NCBI RefSeq assembly: GCF_003790525.1
Contig: NZ_CP033635.1
Strand: one strand, 5' to 3'
From: Escherichia coli
GTDB lineage: Bacteria; Pseudomonadota; Gammaproteobacteria; Enterobacterales; Enterobacteriaceae
DNA length: 64,000 bases
Shown: in pieces, positions 26,182-47,319 of the stretch
Position numbering within the stretch: the stretch's first letter is position 1
Layout: each line of letters starts with the position of its first letter
Notes under the pieces: generated by a model
The model's input: the letters and a program-made list of their open reading frames with translations, nothing else
What the model was told of the DNA's origin: nothing
Databases searched by the model: none
Program-made: the position numbers and the translations under genes

Positions 26182-28128
26182 TTACTTTTTGATTTCATAC
26201 AGCGGCGTTTGACCCGCCACGACATGGCCCTGAGCTTTAATGATCAAGCCGCTGAAATCGTCGATATTGCTGCAAACCACCGGGCTAATCATCGAGCGGG
26301 CGTTTTCGTTCAGATAATCCAGATCCATTTCCAGAATCGGTTGCCCTGCGCTTACTTGCGCGCCCTCTTCCACCAGACGTTTAAAGCCTTTACCTTCCAG
26401 CGCTACGGTGTCGATACCCATATGGACGACAATCTCCGCGCCTTTTTCAGTTTCCAGGCAGAATGCGTGGTTGGTGTTGAAGATTTTCACGATAGTCCCT
26501 GCGGCTGGTGATACGACGATTTTATCTGTCGGTTTCACCGCCACACCGTCACCCACCGCTTTGCTGGCGAATGCTTCGTCAGGAACCTGATCCAGTGCCA
26601 CAACATCACCGGTAATCGGCGATACCAGCTCCGCGATAGATACTGCGTTTGGTACAGCCTGCGGTTTTGCTACAGGCGCGGCAGTTGCCGGAGCAGTTTC
26701 AGCAGAGGCAGCGGCTACCGGACCGCGGGCAACGACTTTCTTCATCGCATCGCCGATGGATTCTGCTTTCGCGCCAACAATCACCTGAATAGTCTGTTTG
26801 TTCAGTTTCACTACCCCAGAAGCACCCAGACGTTTACACATCGTATCGTTAACGCGGGCAGAGTCAGCCACTGTAAGGCGCAGACGGGTGATACAGGCGT
26901 CAATTGCTTTCAGGTTGTCAGTGCCGCCAACCGCAGCAATATAGTTGGTTGCCAGTTGATTGAGACCTTCTTCAGTATTGCTGTTAGCCTCTTCAGTAAC
27001 GATCTCGTCTTCTTTATCTTCACGACCTGGCGTTTTCAGGTTGAACATGCGGATAACCAAACTGAACACCACGAAGTAGATAGCGAAGAAGACAACCCCC
27101 ATCACCAGCAGCATCCAGACGTTCTGGCTGGCGGCCGGCAGGTTATACATCAACGCGTAGTCGATAGCCCCCGCAGAGAAAGAGAAGCCGGCATGGATAC
27201 CCAGCAACGTTGCCACAAACAGGCTGATACCGGTCAGCAGTGCGTGCAGGAGGTACAGCAGCGGTGCAAGGAACATGAACAGGAATTCCAGCGGCTCAGT
27301 CACACCGGTCAGGAACGCAGTAACAGCAACAGAAAGCAGCATCCCGCCAACCATCGGACGGCGCTCTTTCGGTGCTGCAAAGTACATCGCCAGCGCCGCA
27401 CCCGGCAGACCGAACATCATGATCGGGAAGAAGCCGGACATGAACATCCCCGCGGTGCCGTCACCGGCATAGAAGCGGTTGATGTCACCGTGAAAAACCG
27501 TACCCGCCGCGTTGGTGAATTCACCAATCTGGAACCAGGCGATGGTGTTCAGTACCTGATGCAGACCGGTTGGGATCAGCAGACGGTTGATGAAACCAAA
27601 GATACCGGAACCCAGCGCGCCCGCAGAAACGATCCACTCGCCGCCTGCATGGATAGCGTGCTGTACCGGCGGCCAGACGTAACCAAAAATGGCCGCCAGC
27701 ACCAGGCAGAAGAAGCCGGTGGCAATCGGCACAAAGCGTTTGCCGCCGAAGAAACTCAGGAAGTCCGGCAGTTTAATATCGGACCAACGGTTATAAGCTG
27801 CGCCACCAACCAGACCGGTAATGATACCCGCCAGTACACCCATGTTAATTTCTGGGTTGATGGTCACCATCGCTTTGGTTAACACAAAGTAACCTACCGC
27901 ACCCGCCAGTGCCGCCGCACCTGCGCTGTCTTTCGACCAGCTGGATGCCACACCGATGGCGAAGATTAATGCGAGGTTATCAAAAATCGCACCGCCCGCC
28001 TGGGCAATAAACGCAACGTTAAGTAAATCTGGCTGACCGAATCGCAGCAACAGCGCCGCCACCGGCAGCACCGCGATAGGGAGCTGTAACGCCCTACCGA
28101 GTCGCTGGAAAAAACCTAAAATATTCAT
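26182..28128 (-). CDS. nagE: PTS N-acetylglucosamine-specific EIICBA
   Basis: 648 aa; EIIC membrane domain, EIIB Cys region, EIIA C-terminus. Confidence 0.95.
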   Translation of the reverse strand: MNILGFFQRLGRALQLPIAVLPVAALLLRFGQPDLLNVAFIAQAGGAIFDNLALIFAIGVASSWSKDSAGAAALAGAVGYFVLTKAMVTINPEINMGVLAGIITGLVGGAAYNRWSDIKLPDFLSFFGGKRFVPIATGFFCLVLAAIFGYVWPPVQHAIHAGGEWIVSAGALGSGIFGFINRLLIPTGLHQVLNTIAWFQIGEFTNAAGTVFHGDINRFYAGDGTAGMFMSGFFPIMMFGLPGAALAMYFAAPKERRPMVGGMLLSVAVTAFLTGVTEPLEFLFMFLAPLLYLLHALLTGISLFVATLLGIHAGFSFSAGAIDYALMYNLPAASQNVWMLLVMGVVFFAIYFVVFSLVIRMFNLKTPGREDKEDEIVTEEANSNTEEGLNQLATNYIAAVGGTDNLKAIDACITRLRLTVADSARVNDTMCKRLGASGVVKLNKQTIQVIVGAKAESIGDAMKKVVARGPVAAASAETAPATAAPVAKPQAVPNAVSIAELVSPITGDVVALDQVPDEAFASKAVGDGVAVKPTDKIVVSPAAGTIVKIFNTNHAFCLETEKGAEIVVHMGIDTVALEGKGFKRLVEEGAQVSAGQPILEMDLDYLNENARSMISPVVCSNIDDFSGLIIKAQGHVVAGQTPLYEIKK

Positions 28129-32536: not shown

Positions 32537-32754
32537 GCCATCATTAAAATCATCCTATTCAATAAAACCCGCCCAAAATTATCGATCCATCAATAAATAC
32601 GTCACCACACCCTATCCTTTTTCACAAATCAGCAATCGCCATTACGTTTTTTATTTTTCCACCGCCAAATCGCTTGCGCACAGTGCTGCTTTGCGGCATT
32701 TTTTTAAACAAGCAAACACAACAAGCAACAAATACCAGGTTAACGGAGAAGGTT

Positions 32755-34419
32755 ATGTGTTCAATTTTTGGCGTATTCGATATCAAAACAGACGCAGTTG
32801 AGCTGCGGAAGAAAGCCCTCGAGCTGTCACGCCTGATGCGTCATCGTGGCCCGGACTGGTCCGGTATTTATGCCAGCGATAACGCCATTCTCGCTCACGA
32901 ACGTCTGTCAATTGTTGACGTTAACGCAGGGGCGCAACCTCTCTACAACCAACAAAAAACCCACGTACTGGCGGTAAACGGTGAAATCTACAACCACCAG
33001 GCACTGCGCGCCGAATATGGCGATCGTTATCAGTTCCAGACCGGATCTGACTGCGAAGTGATCCTCGCGCTGTATCAGGAAAAAGGGCCGGAATTTCTTG
33101 ACGACTTGCAGGGCATGTTTGCCTTTGCCCTGTACGACAGCGAAAAAGATGCCTACCTGATTGGTCGCGACCATCTGGGGATCATCCCACTGTATATGGG
33201 CTATGACGAACATGGTCAGCTGTATGTGGCCTCAGAAATGAAAGCCCTGGTGCCGGTATGCCGCACGATTAAAGAGTTCCCGGCGGGGAGCTATTTGTGG
33301 AGTCAGGACGGCGAAATCCGTTCTTATTATCATCGCGACTGGTTCGACTACGATGCGGTGAAAGATAACGTGACCGACAAAAACGAGCTGCGTCAGGCAC
33401 TGGAAGATTCCGTTAAAAGCCATCTGATGTCTGATGTGCCTTACGGTGTGCTGCTATCTGGTGGCCTGGATTCCTCAATCATTTCCGCTATCACCAAGAA
33501 ATACGCCGCCCGTCGCGTGGAAGATCAGGAACGCTCTGAAGCCTGGTGGCCGCAGCTGCACTCCTTTGCTGTAGGTCTGCCGGGTTCACCGGATCTGAAG
33601 GCAGCCCAGGAAGTGGCAAACCATCTGGGCACTGTGCATCATGAAATTCACTTCACTGTACAGGAAGGTCTGGACGCCATCCGCGACGTGATTTACCACA
33701 TCGAAACCTATGACGTGACGACAATCCGCGCTTCAACACCGATGTATTTAATGTCGCGTAAGATCAAGGCGATGGGCATTAAAATGGTGCTGTCCGGTGA
33801 AGGATCTGATGAAGTGTTTGGCGGTTATCTTTACTTCCACAAAGCGCCGAATGCCAAAGAACTGCATGAAGAGACGGTGCGTAAACTGCTGGCCCTGCAT
33901 ATGTATGACTGCGCGCGTGCCAACAAAGCGATGTCAGCCTGGGGCGTGGAAGCACGCGTTCCGTTCCTCGACAAAAAATTCCTCGACGTGGCGATGCGCA
34001 TTAACCCACAGGATAAAATGTGCGGTAACGGCAAAATGGAAAAACACATCCTGCGTGAATGTTTTGAAGCGTATCTGCCCGCAAGCGTGGCCTGGCGGCA
34101 GAAAGAGCAGTTCTCCGATGGCGTCGGTTACAGTTGGATCGACACCCTGAAAGAAGTGGCGGCGCAGCAGGTTTCTGATCAACAGCTGGAAACTGCCCGC
34201 TTCCGCTTCCCGTACAACACACCGACCTCAAAAGAAGCGTATCTGTACCGGGAGATCTTTGAAGAACTGTTCCCGCTTCCGAGCGCCGCTGAGTGCGTGC
34301 CGGGCGGTCCTTCCGTCGCGTGTTCTTCCGCTAAAGCGATTGAGTGGGATGAAGCGTTCAAGAAAATGGACGATCCGTCTGGTCGCGCGGTTGGTGTTCA
34401 CCAGTCGGCATATAAATAA
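32755..34419 (+). CDS. asnB: Asparagine synthetase B (glutamine-hydrolysing)
   Basis: 554 aa from MCSIFGVFD (N-terminal Cys nucleophile); PP-loop SGGLDSS; ORF-track start 32674 is an extension. Confidence 0.95.
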   Translation: MCSIFGVFDIKTDAVELRKKALELSRLMRHRGPDWSGIYASDNAILAHERLSIVDVNAGAQPLYNQQKTHVLAVNGEIYNHQALRAEYGDRYQFQTGSDCEVILALYQEKGPEFLDDLQGMFAFALYDSEKDAYLIGRDHLGIIPLYMGYDEHGQLYVASEMKALVPVCRTIKEFPAGSYLWSQDGEIRSYYHRDWFDYDAVKDNVTDKNELRQALEDSVKSHLMSDVPYGVLLSGGLDSSIISAITKKYAARRVEDQERSEAWWPQLHSFAVGLPGSPDLKAAQEVANHLGTVHHEIHFTVQEGLDAIRDVIYHIETYDVTTIRASTPMYLMSRKIKAMGIKMVLSGEGSDEVFGGYLYFHKAPNAKELHEETVRKLLALHMYDCARANKAMSAWGVEARVPFLDKKFLDVAMRINPQDKMCGNGKMEKHILRECFEAYLPASVAWRQKEQFSDGVGYSWIDTLKEVAAQQVSDQQLETARFRFPYNTPTSKEAYLYREIFEELFPLPSAAECVPGGPSVACSSAKAIEWDEAFKKMDDPSGRAVGVHQSAYK

Positions 34420-39657: not shown

Positions 39658-40121
39658 GTCAGGTGATCCTCGATTTACAACTGGCATGTGAAGATAATTC
39701 CGGGTTACCGGAAGAGAGCCAGTTTCAGACATGGCTGAATGCGGTGATCCCGCAGTTTCAGGAAGAATCGGAAGTGACTATTCGCGTGGTCGATACCGCC
39801 GAAAGCCACAGTCTGAATCTGACCTATCGCGGTAAGGATAAGCCGACCAACGTGCTCTCCTTCCCGTTTGAAGTGCCGCCTGGCATGGAAATGTCGCTAC
39901 TGGGCGATCTGGTTATCTGCCGTCAGGTGGTTGAGAAGGAAGCTCAGGAGCAAGGCAAACCACTGGAGGCGCACTGGGCGCATATGGTGGTGCACGGCAG
40001 TCTGCATTTGTTAGGTTACGATCACATCGAAGATGACGAAGCAGAAGAAATGGAAGCCATCGAAACAGAGATTATGCTTGCTCTGGGCTATGAGGATCCG
40101 TACATTGCCGAGAAAGAATAA
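39654..40121 (+). CDS. ybeY: rRNA maturation endoribonuclease YbeY
   Basis: 155 aa; metal-binding [11 protein letters not shown] motif; ATGA overlap with ybeZ. Confidence 0.95.
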
Positions 40122-40210
40122 TTTGCCAGGCATTTGACTGGCAGACGTCCCCGCCGTTGGTGATTAACGACGGCGTTTTGATTAACTAACATGAGAACCC
40201 ATACGACGCC

Positions 40211-41089
40211 ATGAGCGACGACAATTCACACAGTAGTGACACGATAAGCAACAAGAAGGGATTTTTCTCCCTGTTACTCAGCCAACTTTTCCACGGTGAA
40301 CCGAAAAACCGTGACGAACTGCTGGCGCTGATCCGTGATTCCGGGCAGAACGACCTTATCGACGAAGATACGCGCGATATGCTCGAAGGGGTGATGGACA
40401 TCGCAGACCAACGCGTCCGCGACATCATGATCCCCCGCTCCCAGATGATTACCCTGAAACGCAACCAGACGCTGGACGAATGCCTTGATGTCATCATTGA
40501 GTCCGCCCACTCACGTTTCCCGGTGATTAGCGAAGACAAAGATCACATTGAAGGGATTCTGATGGCGAAAGACTTGCTGCCGTTTATGCGCAGCGATGCT
40601 GAAGCCTTCAGCATGGACAAAGTGTTACGTCAGGCGGTTGTCGTTCCTGAAAGTAAGCGCGTAGACCGGATGCTGAAAGAGTTTCGCTCTCAGCGTTACC
40701 ACATGGCGATCGTCATTGACGAATTCGGTGGAGTTTCCGGTCTGGTGACCATTGAAGACATCCTGGAACTGATTGTTGGTGAGATTGAAGACGAGTATGA
40801 CGAAGAAGATGATATCGACTTCCGTCAGCTGAGTCGTCATACCTGGACCGTGCGCGCACTGGCTTCTATTGAAGACTTCAACGAAGCGTTCGGCACCCAC
40901 TTTAGCGATGAAGAGGTTGACACTATCGGTGGTCTGGTGATGCAGGCATTTGGGCATCTTCCGGCGCGTGGCGAAACCATCGACATCGACGGTTACCAGT
41001 TCAAAGTGGCGATGGCCGACAGTCGGCGTATTATTCAGGTTCATGTCAAAATCCCGGATGACTCACCCCAGCCGAAGCTGGATGAATAA
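40211..41089 (+). CDS. corC: Mg/Co efflux-associated CBS-domain protein CorC (YbeX)
   Basis: 292 aa; CBS pair plus CorC/HlyC C-terminal domain. Confidence 0.9.
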
Positions 41090-41113
41090 AACCGAAACTG
41101 GATAGATAACTAC

Positions 41114-42652
41114 ATGGCTTTTGCCTCATTAATTGAACGCCAGCGCATTCGCCTGCTGCTGGCGTTATTATTCGGTGCCTGCGGAACGCTGGCCTTCTCT
41201 CCTTACGACGTCTGGCCTGCGGCGATTATTTCGCTGATGGGGCTTCAGGCGTTGACCTTTAACCGCCGTCCACTCCAGTCTGCCGCTATTGGCTTTTGCT
41301 GGGGATTTGGCCTCTTTGGCAGCGGTATTAACTGGGTCTATGTCAGCATCGCGACCTTTGGCGGAATGCCTGGCCCGGTTAACATCTTCCTGGTGGTACT
41401 GCTGGCGGCGTATTTGTCGCTGTATACCGGACTGTTTGCTGGCGTGCTGTCGCGTCTGTGGCCGAAAACCACCTGGCTGCGCGTGGCGATTGCCGCCCCT
41501 GCTCTCTGGCAAGTGACCGAGTTTCTGCGCGGTTGGGTACTAACAGGCTTCCCGTGGTTACAGTTCGGCTATAGCCAGATTGATGGCCCGTTAAAAGGGC
41601 TGGCACCGCTAATGGGCGTGGAAGCCATTAACTTCCTGCTTATGATGGTTAGCGGCCTGCTGGCACTGGCGTTAGTCAAACGCAACTGGCGTCCGCTGGT
41701 GGTGGCCGTCGTGCTGTTTGCCCTACCCTTCCCGCTGCGTTACATCCAGTGGTTTACCCCGCAACCGGAGAAAACCATTCAGGTTTCGATGGTTCAGGGC
41801 GATATTCCGCAATCGCTGAAATGGGACGGAGACCAGCTACTTAATACGCTGAAGATTTACTACAACGCAACGGCACCGCTGATGGGCAAATCATCGTTGA
41901 TTATCTGGCCGGAGTCGGCGATAACCGATCTGGAAATTAATCAGCAACCGTTCCTCAAAGCACTGGACGGTGAGTTGCGCGATAAAGGTAGCTCGCTGGT
42001 AACCGGGATTGTCGACGCGCGTCTCAATAAGCAGAACCGCTACGATACCTACAACACCATCATCACACTGGGTAAAGGTGCACCGTACAGCTACGAATCA
42101 GCCGATCGCTATAACAAAAACCATCTGGTGCCGTTTGGCGAGTTTGTCCCGCTCGAGTCGATTCTGCGTCCGTTAGCACCGTTCTTTGATCTGCCGATGT
42201 CGTCGTTCAGCCGTGGGCCATATATCCAGCCGCCGCTGTCGGTAAATGGTATTGAGCTTACTGCGGCTATTTGCTACGAGATCATTCTCGGCGAGCAAGT
42301 GCGCGATAACTTCCGCCCGGATACCGACTATCTGCTGACTATCTCCAACGATGCGTGGTTTGGTAAGTCTATTGGTCCATGGCAGCACTTCCAGATGGCG
42401 CGAATGCGTGCGTTGGAGCTGGCGCGCCCACTGTTGCGCAGCACCAACAACGGCATTACGGCGGTGATTGGCCCGCAGGGTGAGATTCAGGCGATGATCC
42501 CGCAGTTCACCCGCGAGGTGTTAACCACTAATGTGACGCCGACCACCGGACTCACACCGTATGCACGTACCGGCAACTGGCCGCTGTGGGTACTGACGGC
42601 ATTGTTTGGTTTTGCCGCTGTGTTGATGAGTCTGCGTCAACGACGTAAATAA
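41114..42652 (+). CDS. lnt: Apolipoprotein N-acyltransferase
   Basis: 512 aa; N-terminal multi-TM region, C-terminal nitrilase-like domain. Confidence 0.95.
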
Positions 42653-42663
42653 TCCCTTCTTAT

Positions 42664-42731
42664 CGTGCCGGAATACATCCCGTATTTCGGCACGCTCGCC
42701 GGATGTGGCATCAGTGCGTTATCCGGATGAC
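42664..42731. repeat. Hairpin plus REP element downstream of lnt
   Basis: GTGCCGGAATACATCCCGTATTTCGGCAC hairpin and CGCCGGATGTGGCATCAGTGCGTTATCCGGATGAC. Confidence 0.55.
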
Positions 42732-42948
42732 AAAATTCCCCTATCCAACTTTGGCACATCTATTGCTTTGTTATACAAGGCAAAGCTTGAACCCGCATCA
42801 GTACAACCCGGTTGCACCACAGCAATCCACCGGTAGCACCAAAAGAGTGCATTTTAAGAATTTTGCTTCGGAATGGTGCGGCGCATCTCGCAAAAACAAA
42901 CAATAAAACATCAATATCTTTACATTTAGCCAAACTAAATGTTACCTA

Positions 42949-43004
42949 ACAAACACAACACTGCACAATAAAGTTGCAGATGATAACAACACAAACACTC
43001 ACAA
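42949..43004 (+). promoter_or_regulatory. C/A-rich elements in gltI 5' UTR (candidate GcvB sRNA target / translational enhancer)
   Basis: AACAAACACAACACTGCACAATAAA and ATAACAACACAAACACTCACAAC upstream of gltI RBS; gltI is a known GcvB target in enterobacteria. Confidence 0.5.
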
Positions 43005-43048
43005 CGGGTATCCATGCGTTCTTAACGCAGAAGATAAAGGAGTTGGAT

Positions 43049-43957
43049 ATGCAATTACGTAAACCTGCCACAGCAATCCTGGCCCTGGCGCTTTCCGCAG
43101 GACTGGCACAGGCAGATGACGCCGCCCCGGCAGCAGGCAGTACGCTGGACAAAATCGCCAAAAACGGTGTGATTGTCGTCGGTCACCGTGAATCTTCAGT
43201 ACCTTTCTCTTATTACGACAATCAGCAAAAAGTGGTGGGTTACTCGCAGGATTACTCCAACGCCATTGTTGAAGCAGTGAAAAAGAAACTCAACAAACCG
43301 GACTTGCAGGTGAAATTGATTCCGATCACCTCACAAAACCGTATTCCGCTGCTGCAAAACGGCACTTTCGATTTTGAATGTGGTTCTACCACCAACAACG
43401 TCGAACGCCAAAAACAGGCGGCTTTCTCCGACACTATTTTCGTGGTCGGTACGCGCCTGCTGACAAAAAAAGGCGGCGATATTAAAGATTTTGCCGATCT
43501 GAAAGACAAAGCCGTCGTAGTCACTTCCGGCACCACCTCTGAAGTTTTGCTCAACAAACTGAATGAAGAGCAAAAAATGAACATGCGCATCATCAGCGCC
43601 AAAGATCACGGTGACTCTTTCCGTACCCTGGAAAGCGGTCGTGCCGTTGCCTTTATGATGGATGATGCTCTGCTGGCTGGTGAACGTGCGAAAGCGAAGA
43701 AACCAGACAACTGGGAAATCGTCGGCAAGCCGCAGTCTCAGGAAGCCTACGGTTGCATGTTGCGTAAAGACGATCCGCAGTTCAAAAAGCTGATGGATGA
43801 CACTATCGCTCAGGTGCAGACCTCCGGTGAAGCGGAAAAATGGTTTGATAAATGGTTCAAAAACCCAATTCCGCCGAAAAACCTGAACATGAATTTCGAA
43901 CTGTCGGACGAAATGAAAGCACTGTTCAAAGAACCGAATGACAAGGCACTGAACTAA
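43049..43957 (+). CDS. gltI: Glutamate/aspartate periplasmic binding protein
   Basis: 302 aa from MQLRKPATAILALALSAGLAQA (signal peptide); ORF-track start 42974 is an extension through the 5' UTR. Confidence 0.9.
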   Translation: MQLRKPATAILALALSAGLAQADDAAPAAGSTLDKIAKNGVIVVGHRESSVPFSYYDNQQKVVGYSQDYSNAIVEAVKKKLNKPDLQVKLIPITSQNRIPLLQNGTFDFECGSTTNNVERQKQAAFSDTIFVVGTRLLTKKGGDIKDFADLKDKAVVVTSGTTSEVLLNKLNEEQKMNMRIISAKDHGDSFRTLESGRAVAFMMDDALLAGERAKAKKPDNWEIVGKPQSQEAYGCMLRKDDPQFKKLMDDTIAQVQTSGEAEKWFDKWFKNPIPPKNLNMNFELSDEMKALFKEPNDKALN

Positions 43958-44113
43958 TTACAAGAACCAGGGGCGGAAATTCCAGCCCTCTCGATTGTTA
44001 CGTAGCACGGACAGACTATACGCCTGATGGTCGTTCCCCATCGGGCCTGAAAACCGCAATACGCTGGGTAACAATCTTCGAGGGTAGCAGTTAACGCTGC
44101 TACCCTCTTTTTT
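43958..44113 (+). ncRNA. sroC: SroC sRNA region (gltI-gltJ intergenic, processed from gltIJKL mRNA)
   Basis: 169-bp intergenic region ending in strong hairpin GAGGGTAGCAG-ttaac-GCTGCTACCCTC plus TTTTTT at 44081..44113; 5' boundary not determinable from sequence. Confidence 0.5.
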
Positions 44114-44126
44114 CTGGAGTAGATTT

Positions 44127-44867
44127 ATGTCTATAGACTGGAACTGGGGTATTTTTTTACAACAAGCCCCGTTCGGCAACACCACCTATCTTGGTTGGAT
44201 CTGGAGTGGTTTTCAGGTGACGATCGCTTTGTCGATCTGCGCCTGGATTATCGCTTTCCTCGTCGGTTCATTTTTCGGCATTTTACGTACCGTTCCAAAC
44301 CGTTTTCTCTCCGGTCTGGGTACGTTGTATGTCGAACTGTTCCGCAACGTGCCGTTGATTGTGCAATTCTTTACCTGGTATCTGGTGATCCCGGAGCTGT
44401 TGCCGGAGAAAATCGGCATGTGGTTTAAGGCCGAGCTGGATCCCAATATTCAGTTTTTCCTTTCATCCATGCTCTGCCTGGGGCTGTTTACCGCCGCCCG
44501 TGTTTGCGAACAGGTACGCGCCGCGATTCAGTCGTTGCCGCGTGGGCAAAAGAATGCCGCGCTGGCAATGGGTCTGACGCTACCGCAGGCTTACCGCTAT
44601 GTACTGCTGCCTAATGCTTATCGCGTTATCGTCCCGCCGATGACCTCCGAGATGATGAACCTGGTGAAAAACTCCGCCATCGCCTCGACTATCGGTCTGG
44701 TAGATATGGCGGCGCAGGCGGGTAAATTGCTCGATTACTCAGCTCATGCCTGGGAGTCGTTTACCGCCATTACGCTTGCGTATGTGTTGATTAACGCGGT
44801 TATCATGCTGGTAATGACGCTGGTTGAACGTAAAGTTCGCCTGCCCGGCAACATGGGGGGCAAATAA
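44127..44867 (+). CDS. gltJ: Glutamate/aspartate ABC transporter permease
   Basis: 246 aa polytopic permease. Confidence 0.9.
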
Positions 44868-45541
44868 TGTACGAGTTTGACTGGAGTTCCATAGTTCCTT
44901 CCCTGCCATATCTGCTCGACGGGCTGGTGATCACCCTGAAAATCACCGTCACGGCAGTCGTGATTGGTATTTTGTGGGGCACCATGCTGGCGGTGATGCG
45001 CTTGTCCAGCTTTGCGCCCGTAGCGTGGTTTGCCAAAGCCTACGTTAACGTATTCCGCTCGATTCCTTTAGTTATGGTTTTGCTGTGGTTTTACCTGATT
45101 GTGCCGGGTTTTCTGCAAAACGTGCTGGGATTATCGCCAAAAAATGATATCCGTTTAATCTCGGCGATGGTGGCGTTTTCGATGTTTGAAGCGGCCTACT
45201 ATTCAGAGATTATCCGTGCCGGTATTCAAAGTATTTCCCGTGGTCAGTCGAGCGCCGCGCTGGCGTTGGGGATGAATCACTGGCAGTCGATGAAACTGAT
45301 TATTCTGCCGCAGGCGTTCCGCGCGATGGTGCCGCTGCTGCTCACTCAGGGCATCGTACTGTTCCAGGATACCTCACTGGTGTATGTGTTATCTCTGGCC
45401 GATTTCTTCCGTACCGCCTCAACCATTGGTGAGCGTGATGGTACGCAGGTCGAGATGATCCTGTTTGCCGGGTTTGTTTATTTCGTTATTAGCCTTAGCG
45501 CATCGTTGTTGGTCAGCTACTTGAAAAGAAGGACAGCATAA
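44867..45541 (+). CDS. gltK: Glutamate/aspartate ABC transporter permease
   Basis: 224 aa; start overlaps gltJ stop. Confidence 0.9.
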
Positions 45542-46266
45542 TGATTACCCTGAAAAATGTTTCAAAATGGTATGGTCACTTTCAGGTGCTGACCGACTGC
45601 TCAACCGAAGTGAAAAAAGGCGAAGTGGTGGTGGTTTGCGGCCCGTCTGGTTCCGGCAAATCAACGCTGATTAAAACCGTCAACGGCCTCGAACCGGTGC
45701 AGCAAGGTGAAATCACCGTCGATGGCATCGTGGTTAATGATAAGAAAACCGATCTGGCAAAGCTGCGTTCCCGCGTCGGGATGGTGTTTCAGCATTTCGA
45801 GCTGTTCCCCCATCTGTCGATTATCGAAAACCTGACCCTGGCGCAGGTGAAAGTGCTTAAACGCAATAAAGCGCCGGCTCGTGAAAAAGCATTGAAATTG
45901 CTGGAGCGCGTCGGGCTTTCCGCACATGCCAATAAGTTTCCGGCGCAGCTTTCCGGCGGCCAGCAGCAGCGAGTGGCGATCGCTCGCGCATTGTGCATGG
46001 ATCCTATTGCCATGCTGTTCGACGAACCAACGTCGGCGCTGGATCCGGAGATGATCAACGAAGTGCTGGACGTGATGGTCGAACTGGCGAACGAAGGAAT
46101 GACGATGATGGTGGTGACCCACGAAATGGGCTTTGCCCGTAAAGTGGCGAATCGGGTGATCTTTATGGACGAGGGTAAAATTGTCGAAGACTCGCCGAAA
46201 GACGCTTTCTTCGATGATCCGAAATCGGACCGCGCAAAAGACTTCCTCGCGAAAATCCTGCATTAA
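45541..46266 (+). CDS. gltL: Glutamate/aspartate ABC transporter ATP-binding protein
   Basis: 241 aa; Walker [10 protein letters not shown], signature LSGGQQQR, Walker [12 protein letters not shown]. Confidence 0.95.
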
Positions 46267-46383
46267 TCACTCTGGCGCGCATACCCAAGTGCGCGCCATC
46301 TCACGCTTTATCGTTTCGCTCCTCGTATCTGTTACATCCTGGCGGTACCCTTGTCGCAAAGAAGCACACAACAAGGAGCAACA

Positions 46384-47319
46384 ATGGCACTGCCAATTCT
46401 GTTAGATTGCGACCCAGGTCATGACGACGCTATCGCAATCGTTCTCGCCCTCGCCTCACCAGAGCTTGATGTCAAAGCAATTACGTCTTCCGCCGGAAAC
46501 CAGACACCAGAAAAAACCTTACGCAATGTTCTGTGTATGCTGACCTTGCTTAATCGCACCGATATTCCGGTAGCAAGCGGTGCGGTAAAACCATTAATGC
46601 GTGATTTGATTATCGCGGACAATGTGCACGGCGAAAGCGGTCTCGACGGCCCGGCATTACCGGAACCGACGTTCGCACCGCAAAACTGTACGGCGGTGGA
46701 GCTGATGGCGAAAACGCTGTGTGAAAGTGAGGAACCTGTCACCATTGTTTCTACCGGACCGCAAACTAACGTTGCCTTGCTGCTCAATAGCCACCCGGAA
46801 CTGCATAGCAAAATTGCCCGTATCGTGATTATGGGCGGCGCAATGGGGCTTGGTAACTGGACGCCTGCGGCTGAATTTAATATTTACGTTGACCCGGAAG
46901 CGGCAGAAATTGTCTTCCAGTCAGGGATCCCGGTGGTGATGGCCGGTCTGGATGTTACTCACAAAGCACAAATTCACGTTGAGGACACCGAGCGTTTCCG
47001 CGCCATTGGCAACCCTGTTTCAACCATTGTTGCCGAACTGCTGGATTTCTTCCTCGAATATCATAAAGACGAAAAATGGGGCTTTGTCGGCGCACCGCTG
47101 CATGACCCATGCACCATCGCCTGGCTGTTAAAACCGGAGTTGTTTACCACTGTTGAGCGCTGGGTTGGCGTGGAAACACAAGGGAAATATACCCAAGGTA
47201 TGACGGTTGTTGATTATTATTATCTGACTGGCAATAAACCGAATGCCACTGTAATGGTCGATGTTGATCGTCAGGGCTTTGTTGATTTACTGGCCGATCG
47301 TCTGAAATTTTACGCTTAA
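46384..47319 (+). CDS. rihA: Pyrimidine-specific ribonucleoside hydrolase RihA
   Basis: 311 aa from [16 protein letters not shown] (IU-nucleoside hydrolase DxDxxxDD motif). Confidence 0.9.

Follow-up and report, generated by a model that had tools for sequence, protein, structure and literature searches.

C/A-rich tracts in the gltI leader of Escherichia coli: a probable GcvB target element and a neighbouring tract overlapping an inferred sigma70 promoter

Upstream of gltI, the window analysed in this work (a stretch of Escherichia coli DNA of 64,000 nt) contains two C/A-rich tracts. The question they raise is which of them, if not both, acts in the mRNA as a translational enhancer and as a pairing site for the sRNA GcvB, which is the role that a preliminary description of this DNA had assigned to the pair. 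Our answer, to which we give a probability of about 0.8, is that the proximal tract and the 10 nt preceding it represent, in E. coli, the C/A-rich element already known from gltI, and that the distal tract is mainly a DNA-level signal.

The gltI locus, its two tracts and its start codon

The genes in this part of the window are arranged in the order lnt, gltI, sroC, gltJKL, with lnt at 41114-42652, gltJ at 44127, gltK at 44867 and gltL at 45541 according to the list of open reading frames. The segment 42653-43120 is 100% identical to the corresponding sequence of E. coli SMS-3-5 and has a match in 5423 of the 5426 complete E. coli genomes; on the identical sequence, the RefSeq annotation gives lnt, then gltI from 43049, then gltJ. 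The gltI CDS (43049-43957, + strand; RefSeq annotation of the SMS-3-5 sequence and the ORF list) codes for a periplasmic glutamate/aspartate binding protein of 302 aa and is preceded at a distance of 6 nt by the Shine-Dalgarno sequence AAGGAG (43037-43042, + strand, read from the sequence), the AGGAG of which is invariant in all the leaders compared. These are 75 non-identical leaders out of 80 loci that were retrieved with GltI from GTDB species representatives. SroC (Rfam RF00369, 43953-44115, 174.8 bits) covers the end of gltI and the gltI-gltJ spacer and has its terminator at 44080-44107. The Rfam search of 40000-47000 at E <= 1 returned no family match in the gltI leader, its only results being sroC and a chance sbrA match at the sroC terminator.

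Tract 1 (distal, AACAAACACAACACTGCACAATAAA) occupies positions 42948-42972 of the + strand, i.e. -101 to -77 with respect to the gltI ATG at 43049, and tract 2 (proximal, ATAACAACACAAACACTCACAAC = AUAACAACACAAACACUCACAAC) occupies positions 42983-43005 of the same strand, i.e. -66 to -44. Both strings named in the preliminary description were found, and the distance it gives, 45 to 100 nt upstream of the gltI start, agrees with these values, while its span of 42949-43004 is one base off at each end (42948-43005), which fits 0-based counting. Of all 58-mers in the window, both strands included, the region 42948-43005 has the highest C+A content (46 residues out of 58), and its 10 ACA triplets, compared to 0.70 expected, are also the window maximum; the tracts are not a chance fluctuation. 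Tract 2 harbors five ACA triplets, which are predicted to be unpaired.

The list of open reading frames runs the frame of gltI mechanically up to a TTG at 42974, and if the gene started there, tract 2 would encode an N-terminal extension of the protein (MQMITTQTLTTGIHAFLTQKIKELD...). The preliminary description held that this was probably not the real start and was right in doing so, as the longer product has next to no chance of being made. An in-frame open frame from 42974 does exist, but RefSeq places the start at 43049, the strong AAGGAG stands 6 nt upstream of that ATG with none before 42974, and the product from 43049 opens with the typical signal-peptide-like MQLRKPATAILALALSAGLAQA. The upstream frame is also variable: it comprises from 1 to 82 open codons among the 80 relatives, several genera have in-frame stops 1-11 codons upstream of the ATG, and the indels in the leader alignment are not multiples of three.

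The proximal tract as a GcvB target

Pairing was computed with the GcvB sequence from K-12, where R1 corresponds to nt 63-93; of the 5425 E. coli records in which gcvB has a match, 5389 carry it at 99% identity or more. RNAduplex, given the whole of GcvB and the 330-nt leader, paired the two molecules from end to end at -95 kcal/mol, which has no meaning, and scans restricted to R1 or R2 were used instead. The region consisting of the 3' arm of hairpin 1 (described below) and tract 2 (42973-43005, + strand) pairs with GcvB nt 64-93 in a predicted near-continuous duplex of 30 bp, including 26 Watson-Crick and 4 G-U pairs, with an energy of -35.4 kcal/mol. This extended duplex ranks first of the 25,588 35-nt segments scanned on both strands of the 64 kb (mean -13.6, sd 4.1), and the tract 2 core taken separately forms 21 bp with R1 at -23.8 kcal/mol. 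Raw duplex energy is poorly discriminating with such a G/U-rich probe, with several unrelated sites reaching -29 to -32 kcal/mol; against composition-matched shuffles, the z value is -5.1 for the extended site and -2.9 for tract 2 alone. When corrected for accessibility, the energy of the extended site amounts to -17.6 to -19.3 kcal/mol. By prediction, unfolding the core of tract 2 within the mRNA would cost only 1.0-1.5 kcal/mol, and the mean unpaired probability of tract 2 in the window sequence is 0.76.

The in silico check with GcvB R1 and R2 that the preliminary description had proposed thus gave a divided result: pairing with R1 is strong for tract 2, which takes part in the best R1 duplex in the 64 kb, and pairing with R2 is weak, the best duplex being located near the Shine-Dalgarno sequence with -10.8 kcal/mol. 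R2 was rejected as the pairing region on account of this energy, and the literature also puts gltI under R1. Elsewhere in the window there is an 11-nt R1 complement at 26599-26609, on the strand antisense to a 648-aa ORF (26182-28128), which is probably due to chance.

The complementarity of tract 2 to R1 is kept across genera. The perfect Watson-Crick match has a median length of 11 nt and comprises at least 9 nt in 67 of the 75 enterobacterial leaders, and among background 35-mers a match of at least 10 nt occurs in 0.06%. In the core, ATAACAAC...TCACAAT, most alignment columns are invariant or at least 90% conserved over the 75 leaders. The tract occurs in two forms, namely a short one (ATAACAACATCACAAT) in Salmonella, Enterobacter and most Citrobacter, and a long one with a ACAAACAC-type insert in Escherichia, C. 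amalonaticus, Atlantibacter and others; in nine other Escherichia sequences it is invariant.

According to the folding predictions, tract 2 is single-stranded between two hairpins. Hairpin 1 (42961-42979, + strand; CUGCA / UGCAG with a 9-nt loop) is located between the tracts, and the bases of its stem reach 95% pairing in the predicted ensemble; hairpin 2 (43015-43029, + strand; UGCGUU-CUU-AACGCA), located between tract 2 and the Shine-Dalgarno sequence, is predicted both here and in other genera. At the position of hairpin 1 other genera possess different hairpins, e.g. CUCGC/GCGAG in Enterobacter, and because these replacements are non-homologous the leaders were folded individually. RNAalifold on the 75 leaders found almost no consensus structure, with three pairs in hairpin 2, each of which shows compensatory changes in some of the sequences. 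In the minimum-energy folds of 43000-43048, the 3' end of tract 2 (UCACAAC) pairs with a GUUGGA that follows the Shine-Dalgarno sequence and precedes the AUG, a helix that would leave the Shine-Dalgarno sequence in an internal loop. This bracketing helix (CACAAC/GUUGGA) was rejected as a candidate, being broken without compensation by variants from Klebsiella and Yokenella.

In Salmonella, the GcvB site of gltI is reportedly given by Sharma et al. in 2007 (Genes Dev) as -57 to -45, which on the Salmonella leader, read by hand, we take to be AACAACAUCACAA. In the published work, the C/A-rich element located 45 nt upstream of the Salmonella gltI AUG is described both as the target of GcvB R1 and as a translational enhancer, and a 27-nt deletion in the leader is described as abolishing the control by GcvB and lowering translation (PMC3879156, PMC4474525, PMC11347164); reviews give the same account. 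It is also stated there that the 27-nt segment, when moved to an unrelated mRNA, confers both GcvB control and the boost in translation (PMC3879156). For E. coli, gltI is counted among the R1 targets, and chimeras of GcvB with gltI have been obtained by RIL-seq, CLASH and MAPS as well as TRIC-seq; the compensatory-mutation tests of the site in the 5' UTR in E. coli K-12 were reported to be inconclusive (PMC11347164).

Taken with the predictions for the window, these data make likely a mechanism in which tract 2, ACA-rich and unstructured, would be kept open between the two short hairpins, some 45 nt ahead of the AUG, when GcvB is absent, and in this open form would boost the initiation of gltI translation. 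When GcvB is abundant, as in rich medium, its G/U-rich R1 would pair with the tract 2 element with the help of Hfq and mask the enhancer, so that less 30S subunit would be bound and the synthesis of GltI would be repressed; RNase E-dependent decay of the gltI mRNA would come after repression as a secondary event. In this scheme GcvB repression and enhancer activity are taken from the literature, and the sequences, their complementarity, predicted accessibility and conservation were computed here.

The distal tract and the gltI promoters

It is quite reasonable to suggest that tract 1 holds the end of a sigma70 -10 element, the discriminator and the +1 position, and that its conserved core, TAACAAAC, is probably promoter DNA, since a primary TSS has been mapped in Salmonella and the promoter geometry is identical. 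In the dRNA-seq data for S. Typhimurium SL1344, the gltI primary TSS is found at 729314, unchanged between early and late stationary phase, and the promoter sequence from -50 to +1 is TCGCAGCAAAATATTTACAACAAGCCACACTAAATGTTAACAAACACACAT (PMC3963941 Table S1). The SL1344 layout consists of TTTACA, 18 nt of spacer with TGT as its last bases, TAACAA, ACACACA as the discriminator and T(+1); the TSS is located 86 nt from the true ATG (the ATGCAATTA start). In the SL1344 annotation, gltI begins 18 nt before this ATG, at another one that is in frame and within the Shine-Dalgarno region. The window has a matching layout on the + strand, comprising an inferred -35 hexamer TTTACA (42919-42924), 18 nt of spacer, TACCTA (42943-42948), ACAAACA (42949-42955) and an inferred +1 at 42956 (plus or minus 2 nt), which is the positional homologue of the SL1344 primary TSS. 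The CTTTACA around the -35 hexamer is invariant in 18 genera. The extended -10 would be TGT-TACCTA (42940-42948), at the same spacing as in Salmonella and within the conserved block AAATGTTAACAAAC; in Salmonella and most genera its counterpart is TGT-TAACAA. The core TAACAAAC itself sits in a block near-invariant across genera, CTTTACATTAAGCCAAACTAAATGTTAACAAAC.

A consensus scan of 42500-44300 found no sigma70 site, and for this reason the promoter was placed by homology to the mapped TSS, the promoter geometry being computed here and the Salmonella TSS taken from the literature. The poor match of TACCTA to the consensus and the result of the scan mean that the E. coli TSS could differ from that of Salmonella. 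The K-12 TSS table (Kim 2012) lists a 5' end at -52, in tract 2, with 2 reads compared to 1475 for thrL; coming from a strain in which the promoter is cut by IS5, it was treated as noise or a processing product. According to the preliminary description, a transcription start downstream of the tracts would have spoken against an RNA role for them. Tract 2 lies downstream of the inferred TSS at about 42956, and tract 1 straddles it, so that on a sigma70 transcript with the Salmonella-homologous TSS only the 3' 17 nt of tract 1 (42956-42972) would be RNA. For this remnant, the duplex with R1 has an energy of -12.8 to -14.3 kcal/mol, no better than the background with its mean of -13.6.

The 5' end of tract 1 overlaps the CTAA (42946-42949, within the inferred -10) that is the target site occupied by IS5D/insH3 in K-12: in MG1655, the end of IS5D is found 104 nt before the ATG of gltI, with the junction ...CCTTCC-CTAA-CAGGCAC. 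Of the 5423 matching E. coli genomes, 5070 have the junction region 42880-43060 as a single uninterrupted match (coverage of 80% or more) and 353 (about 6.5%) do not, one split example ending exactly at 42949. IS5 has been reported to blunt the induction of SroC by nitrogen limitation in K-12, and its position within the inferred -10 fits this report. Since IS5 sits in the inferred sigma70 promoter, K-12 is a poor model for the transcriptional control of gltI and SroC.

At least 80% of 42653-43120 is covered in only 1833 of the 5423 genomes, compared to 5070 for 42880-43060, and it follows that the lnt-gltI spacer has a variable segment (42653-42880). It contains an lnt-proximal inverted repeat, GTGCCGGAATAC...GTATTTCGGCAC, at about 42666-42694, and a REP-like sequence, GCCGGATGTGGCATCAGTGCGTTATCCGGATG, at about 42699-42730.

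There is also a putative sigma54 promoter, TGGCACATCTATTGCTTT (42752-42769, + strand), about 200 nt upstream of tract 1, which would give a leader of about 270 nt including both tracts. Its GGCA and TTGC are invariant and the flanks nearly so in 18 aligned sequences; the orthologous Salmonella site upstream of gltI, TGGCACGTCTATTGCTTT, was bound by sigma54 in ChIP-chip, an NtrC ChIP-seq peak is located at gltIJKL, and a recent paper describes the operon as having both sigma70 and sigma54 promoters. On this arrangement, the complete tract 1 would be transcribed only from the NtrC/sigma54 promoter, under nitrogen limitation. Downstream of the sigma54 promoter, an NtrC-like inverted repeat GCACC-N5-(G/A)GTGC (AGCACCAAAAGAGTGCA) is found at 42835-42851, and further conserved blocks, (T)TGCACCA and TGGTGCGGCGCA, are located between the sigma54 and sigma70 promoters; it would be unusual for enhancer-like sites to follow the sigma54 start.

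Such a transcript would give some ground to the suggestion that both tracts are RNA elements, tract 1 being a second independent R1 site and/or a C/A enhancer, with two GcvB molecules bound or one bound at alternative sites. Tract 1 does contain an 11-nt perfect Watson-Crick complement to GcvB 80-90 (42950-42960), and its duplex with R1 has an energy of -23.4 kcal/mol (z = -2.8 against shuffles), or -15.1 to -16.7 kcal/mol after correction for accessibility, similar to the tract 2 core. The common AA-to-GG polymorphism, i.e. CAGGCAC in place of CAAACAC, present in K-12 and, out of three further E. coli genomes compared, in two, still allows pairing with R1 via G-U wobbles (-23.0 kcal/mol). Nevertheless, we consider a second site unlikely. 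The homologous TSS falls within tract 1 and leaves an RNA remnant pairing at background level, and the long seed of 11-12 nt occurs in only 3 of the 75 leaders (median match 6 nt), meaning that the R1 complementarity is not conserved; within Escherichia, tract 1 varies at 42949, 42952-42953 and 42963, whereas tract 2 is invariant. Moreover, the sigma54 transcript arises under nitrogen limitation, when GcvB is low. The published Salmonella work, as cited in later papers (PMC3879156, PMC4474525, PMC11347164), assigns the control by GcvB to one element only, some 45 nt ahead of the start. The complementarity of tract 1 to GcvB in this strain is therefore probably fortuitous, and the sigma54 isoform is the only one on which it could be of consequence. 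A narrower version of this idea, a little less likely still, is that strains with the CAAACACAACA allele, including this one, produce under nitrogen limitation a sigma54 transcript in which a second high-affinity R1 site precedes the canonical one by some 35 nt. If so, the long isoform would differ from the sigma70 isoform in its sensitivity to GcvB, or would titrate GcvB beside SroC, and sRNA control would depend on promoter choice and vary between strains.

Other roles for the tracts appear less plausible than a second pairing site. Tract 1 is A-rich, purine-poor and close to a site pairing with an Hfq-dependent sRNA, which is a general property of such targets, and could be imagined as a distal-face (ARN)n loading site for Hfq beside the GcvB pairing site. 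We regard this as improbable: 42933-43048 contains no run of three or more ARN triplets, and much of tract 1 is probably absent from the sigma70 transcript. Even less credible is the view that neither tract has a role in RNA and that their C/A richness arises by accident from base composition or comes along with promoter and AT-rich intergenic DNA. Strong duplexes with a G/U-rich 31-mer are indeed common, e.g. -32.1 kcal/mol at 41471 on the minus strand, in lnt, and tract 1 does overlap promoter elements, but the C+A and ACA density of the span are the maxima of the window, the comparison with shuffles shows that sequence order counts beyond composition, and tract 2 and its complementarity to R1 are kept across genera. 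For tract 2, this view is contradicted by published genetics and interactome data supporting a role at the RNA level. The reading of both tracts as GcvB targets and enhancers, as put forward in the preliminary description, consequently holds for tract 2, with its published position, its R1 complementarity and its location downstream of every plausible TSS, and does not hold as stated for tract 1, with the homologous TSS inside it, the seed in 3 of 75 leaders and the polymorphism.

Meaning and comparison with known systems

The gltI C/A element is a classic case of an sRNA masking an enhancer far upstream of the ribosome-binding site to repress translation. What was found here is already known biology and nothing new; it confirms that such elements are recognisable from raw sequence. 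The refinement is that only tract 2 appears to be a conserved RNA element. Since tract 1 probably consists for the most part of the core promoter for sigma70 and the start site, GcvB sites are over-called when C/A richness is the only criterion.

The closest known system is the gltI element of Salmonella Typhimurium. It belongs to the same gene, reaches with its 3' edge to some 45 nt before the AUG, has the same AUAACAACA...UCACAA core as the R1 partner of GcvB, and is found in the same context of two flanking hairpins and the Shine-Dalgarno sequence. The E. coli element is 8 nt longer owing to the ACAAACAC-type insert, and because of this its predicted duplex comprises 21 bp in the core and 30 bp in the extended form with 1-nt bulges, compared to a perfect helix of 12-13 bp in Salmonella.

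The asnB leader, also present in the window (ATG at 32756), contains a C/A-rich stretch, AAACAAGCAAACACAACAAGCAACAAAUA, at 32707-32735 with a 13-nt perfect R1 complement at 32712-32724, the longest in the window. As asnB is a listed verified GcvB target, this stretch is probably its known GcvB site. It resembles tract 2 in being C/A-rich and in lying in the 50 nt or so that precede the start codon but is located closer to the Shine-Dalgarno sequence (-49 to -21), and asnB is a biosynthesis gene, unlike gltI, which belongs to an ABC transporter. Within the asnB CDS there is a run of 20 C or A residues out of 20 at 32945-32964 (CAACCAACAAAAAACCCAC), which is probably due to chance.

The ACA-motif enhancers of yifK and dppA described by Yang et al. 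in 2014 (PMC3879156) share with tract 2 the ACA-rich sequence, the stimulation of translation and the pairing with GcvB R1, and differ from it in that the element abuts the Shine-Dalgarno sequence. SroC, finally, is part of the same gltI mRNA and of the same GcvB circuit, being the published GcvB sponge from the gltI 3' UTR, processed from the very mRNA whose leader is targeted by GcvB (PMC4474525, PMC11347164). It pairs with GcvB outside R1, through SL1/R3, and destroys it, whereas the leader with tract 2 is itself repressed by GcvB.
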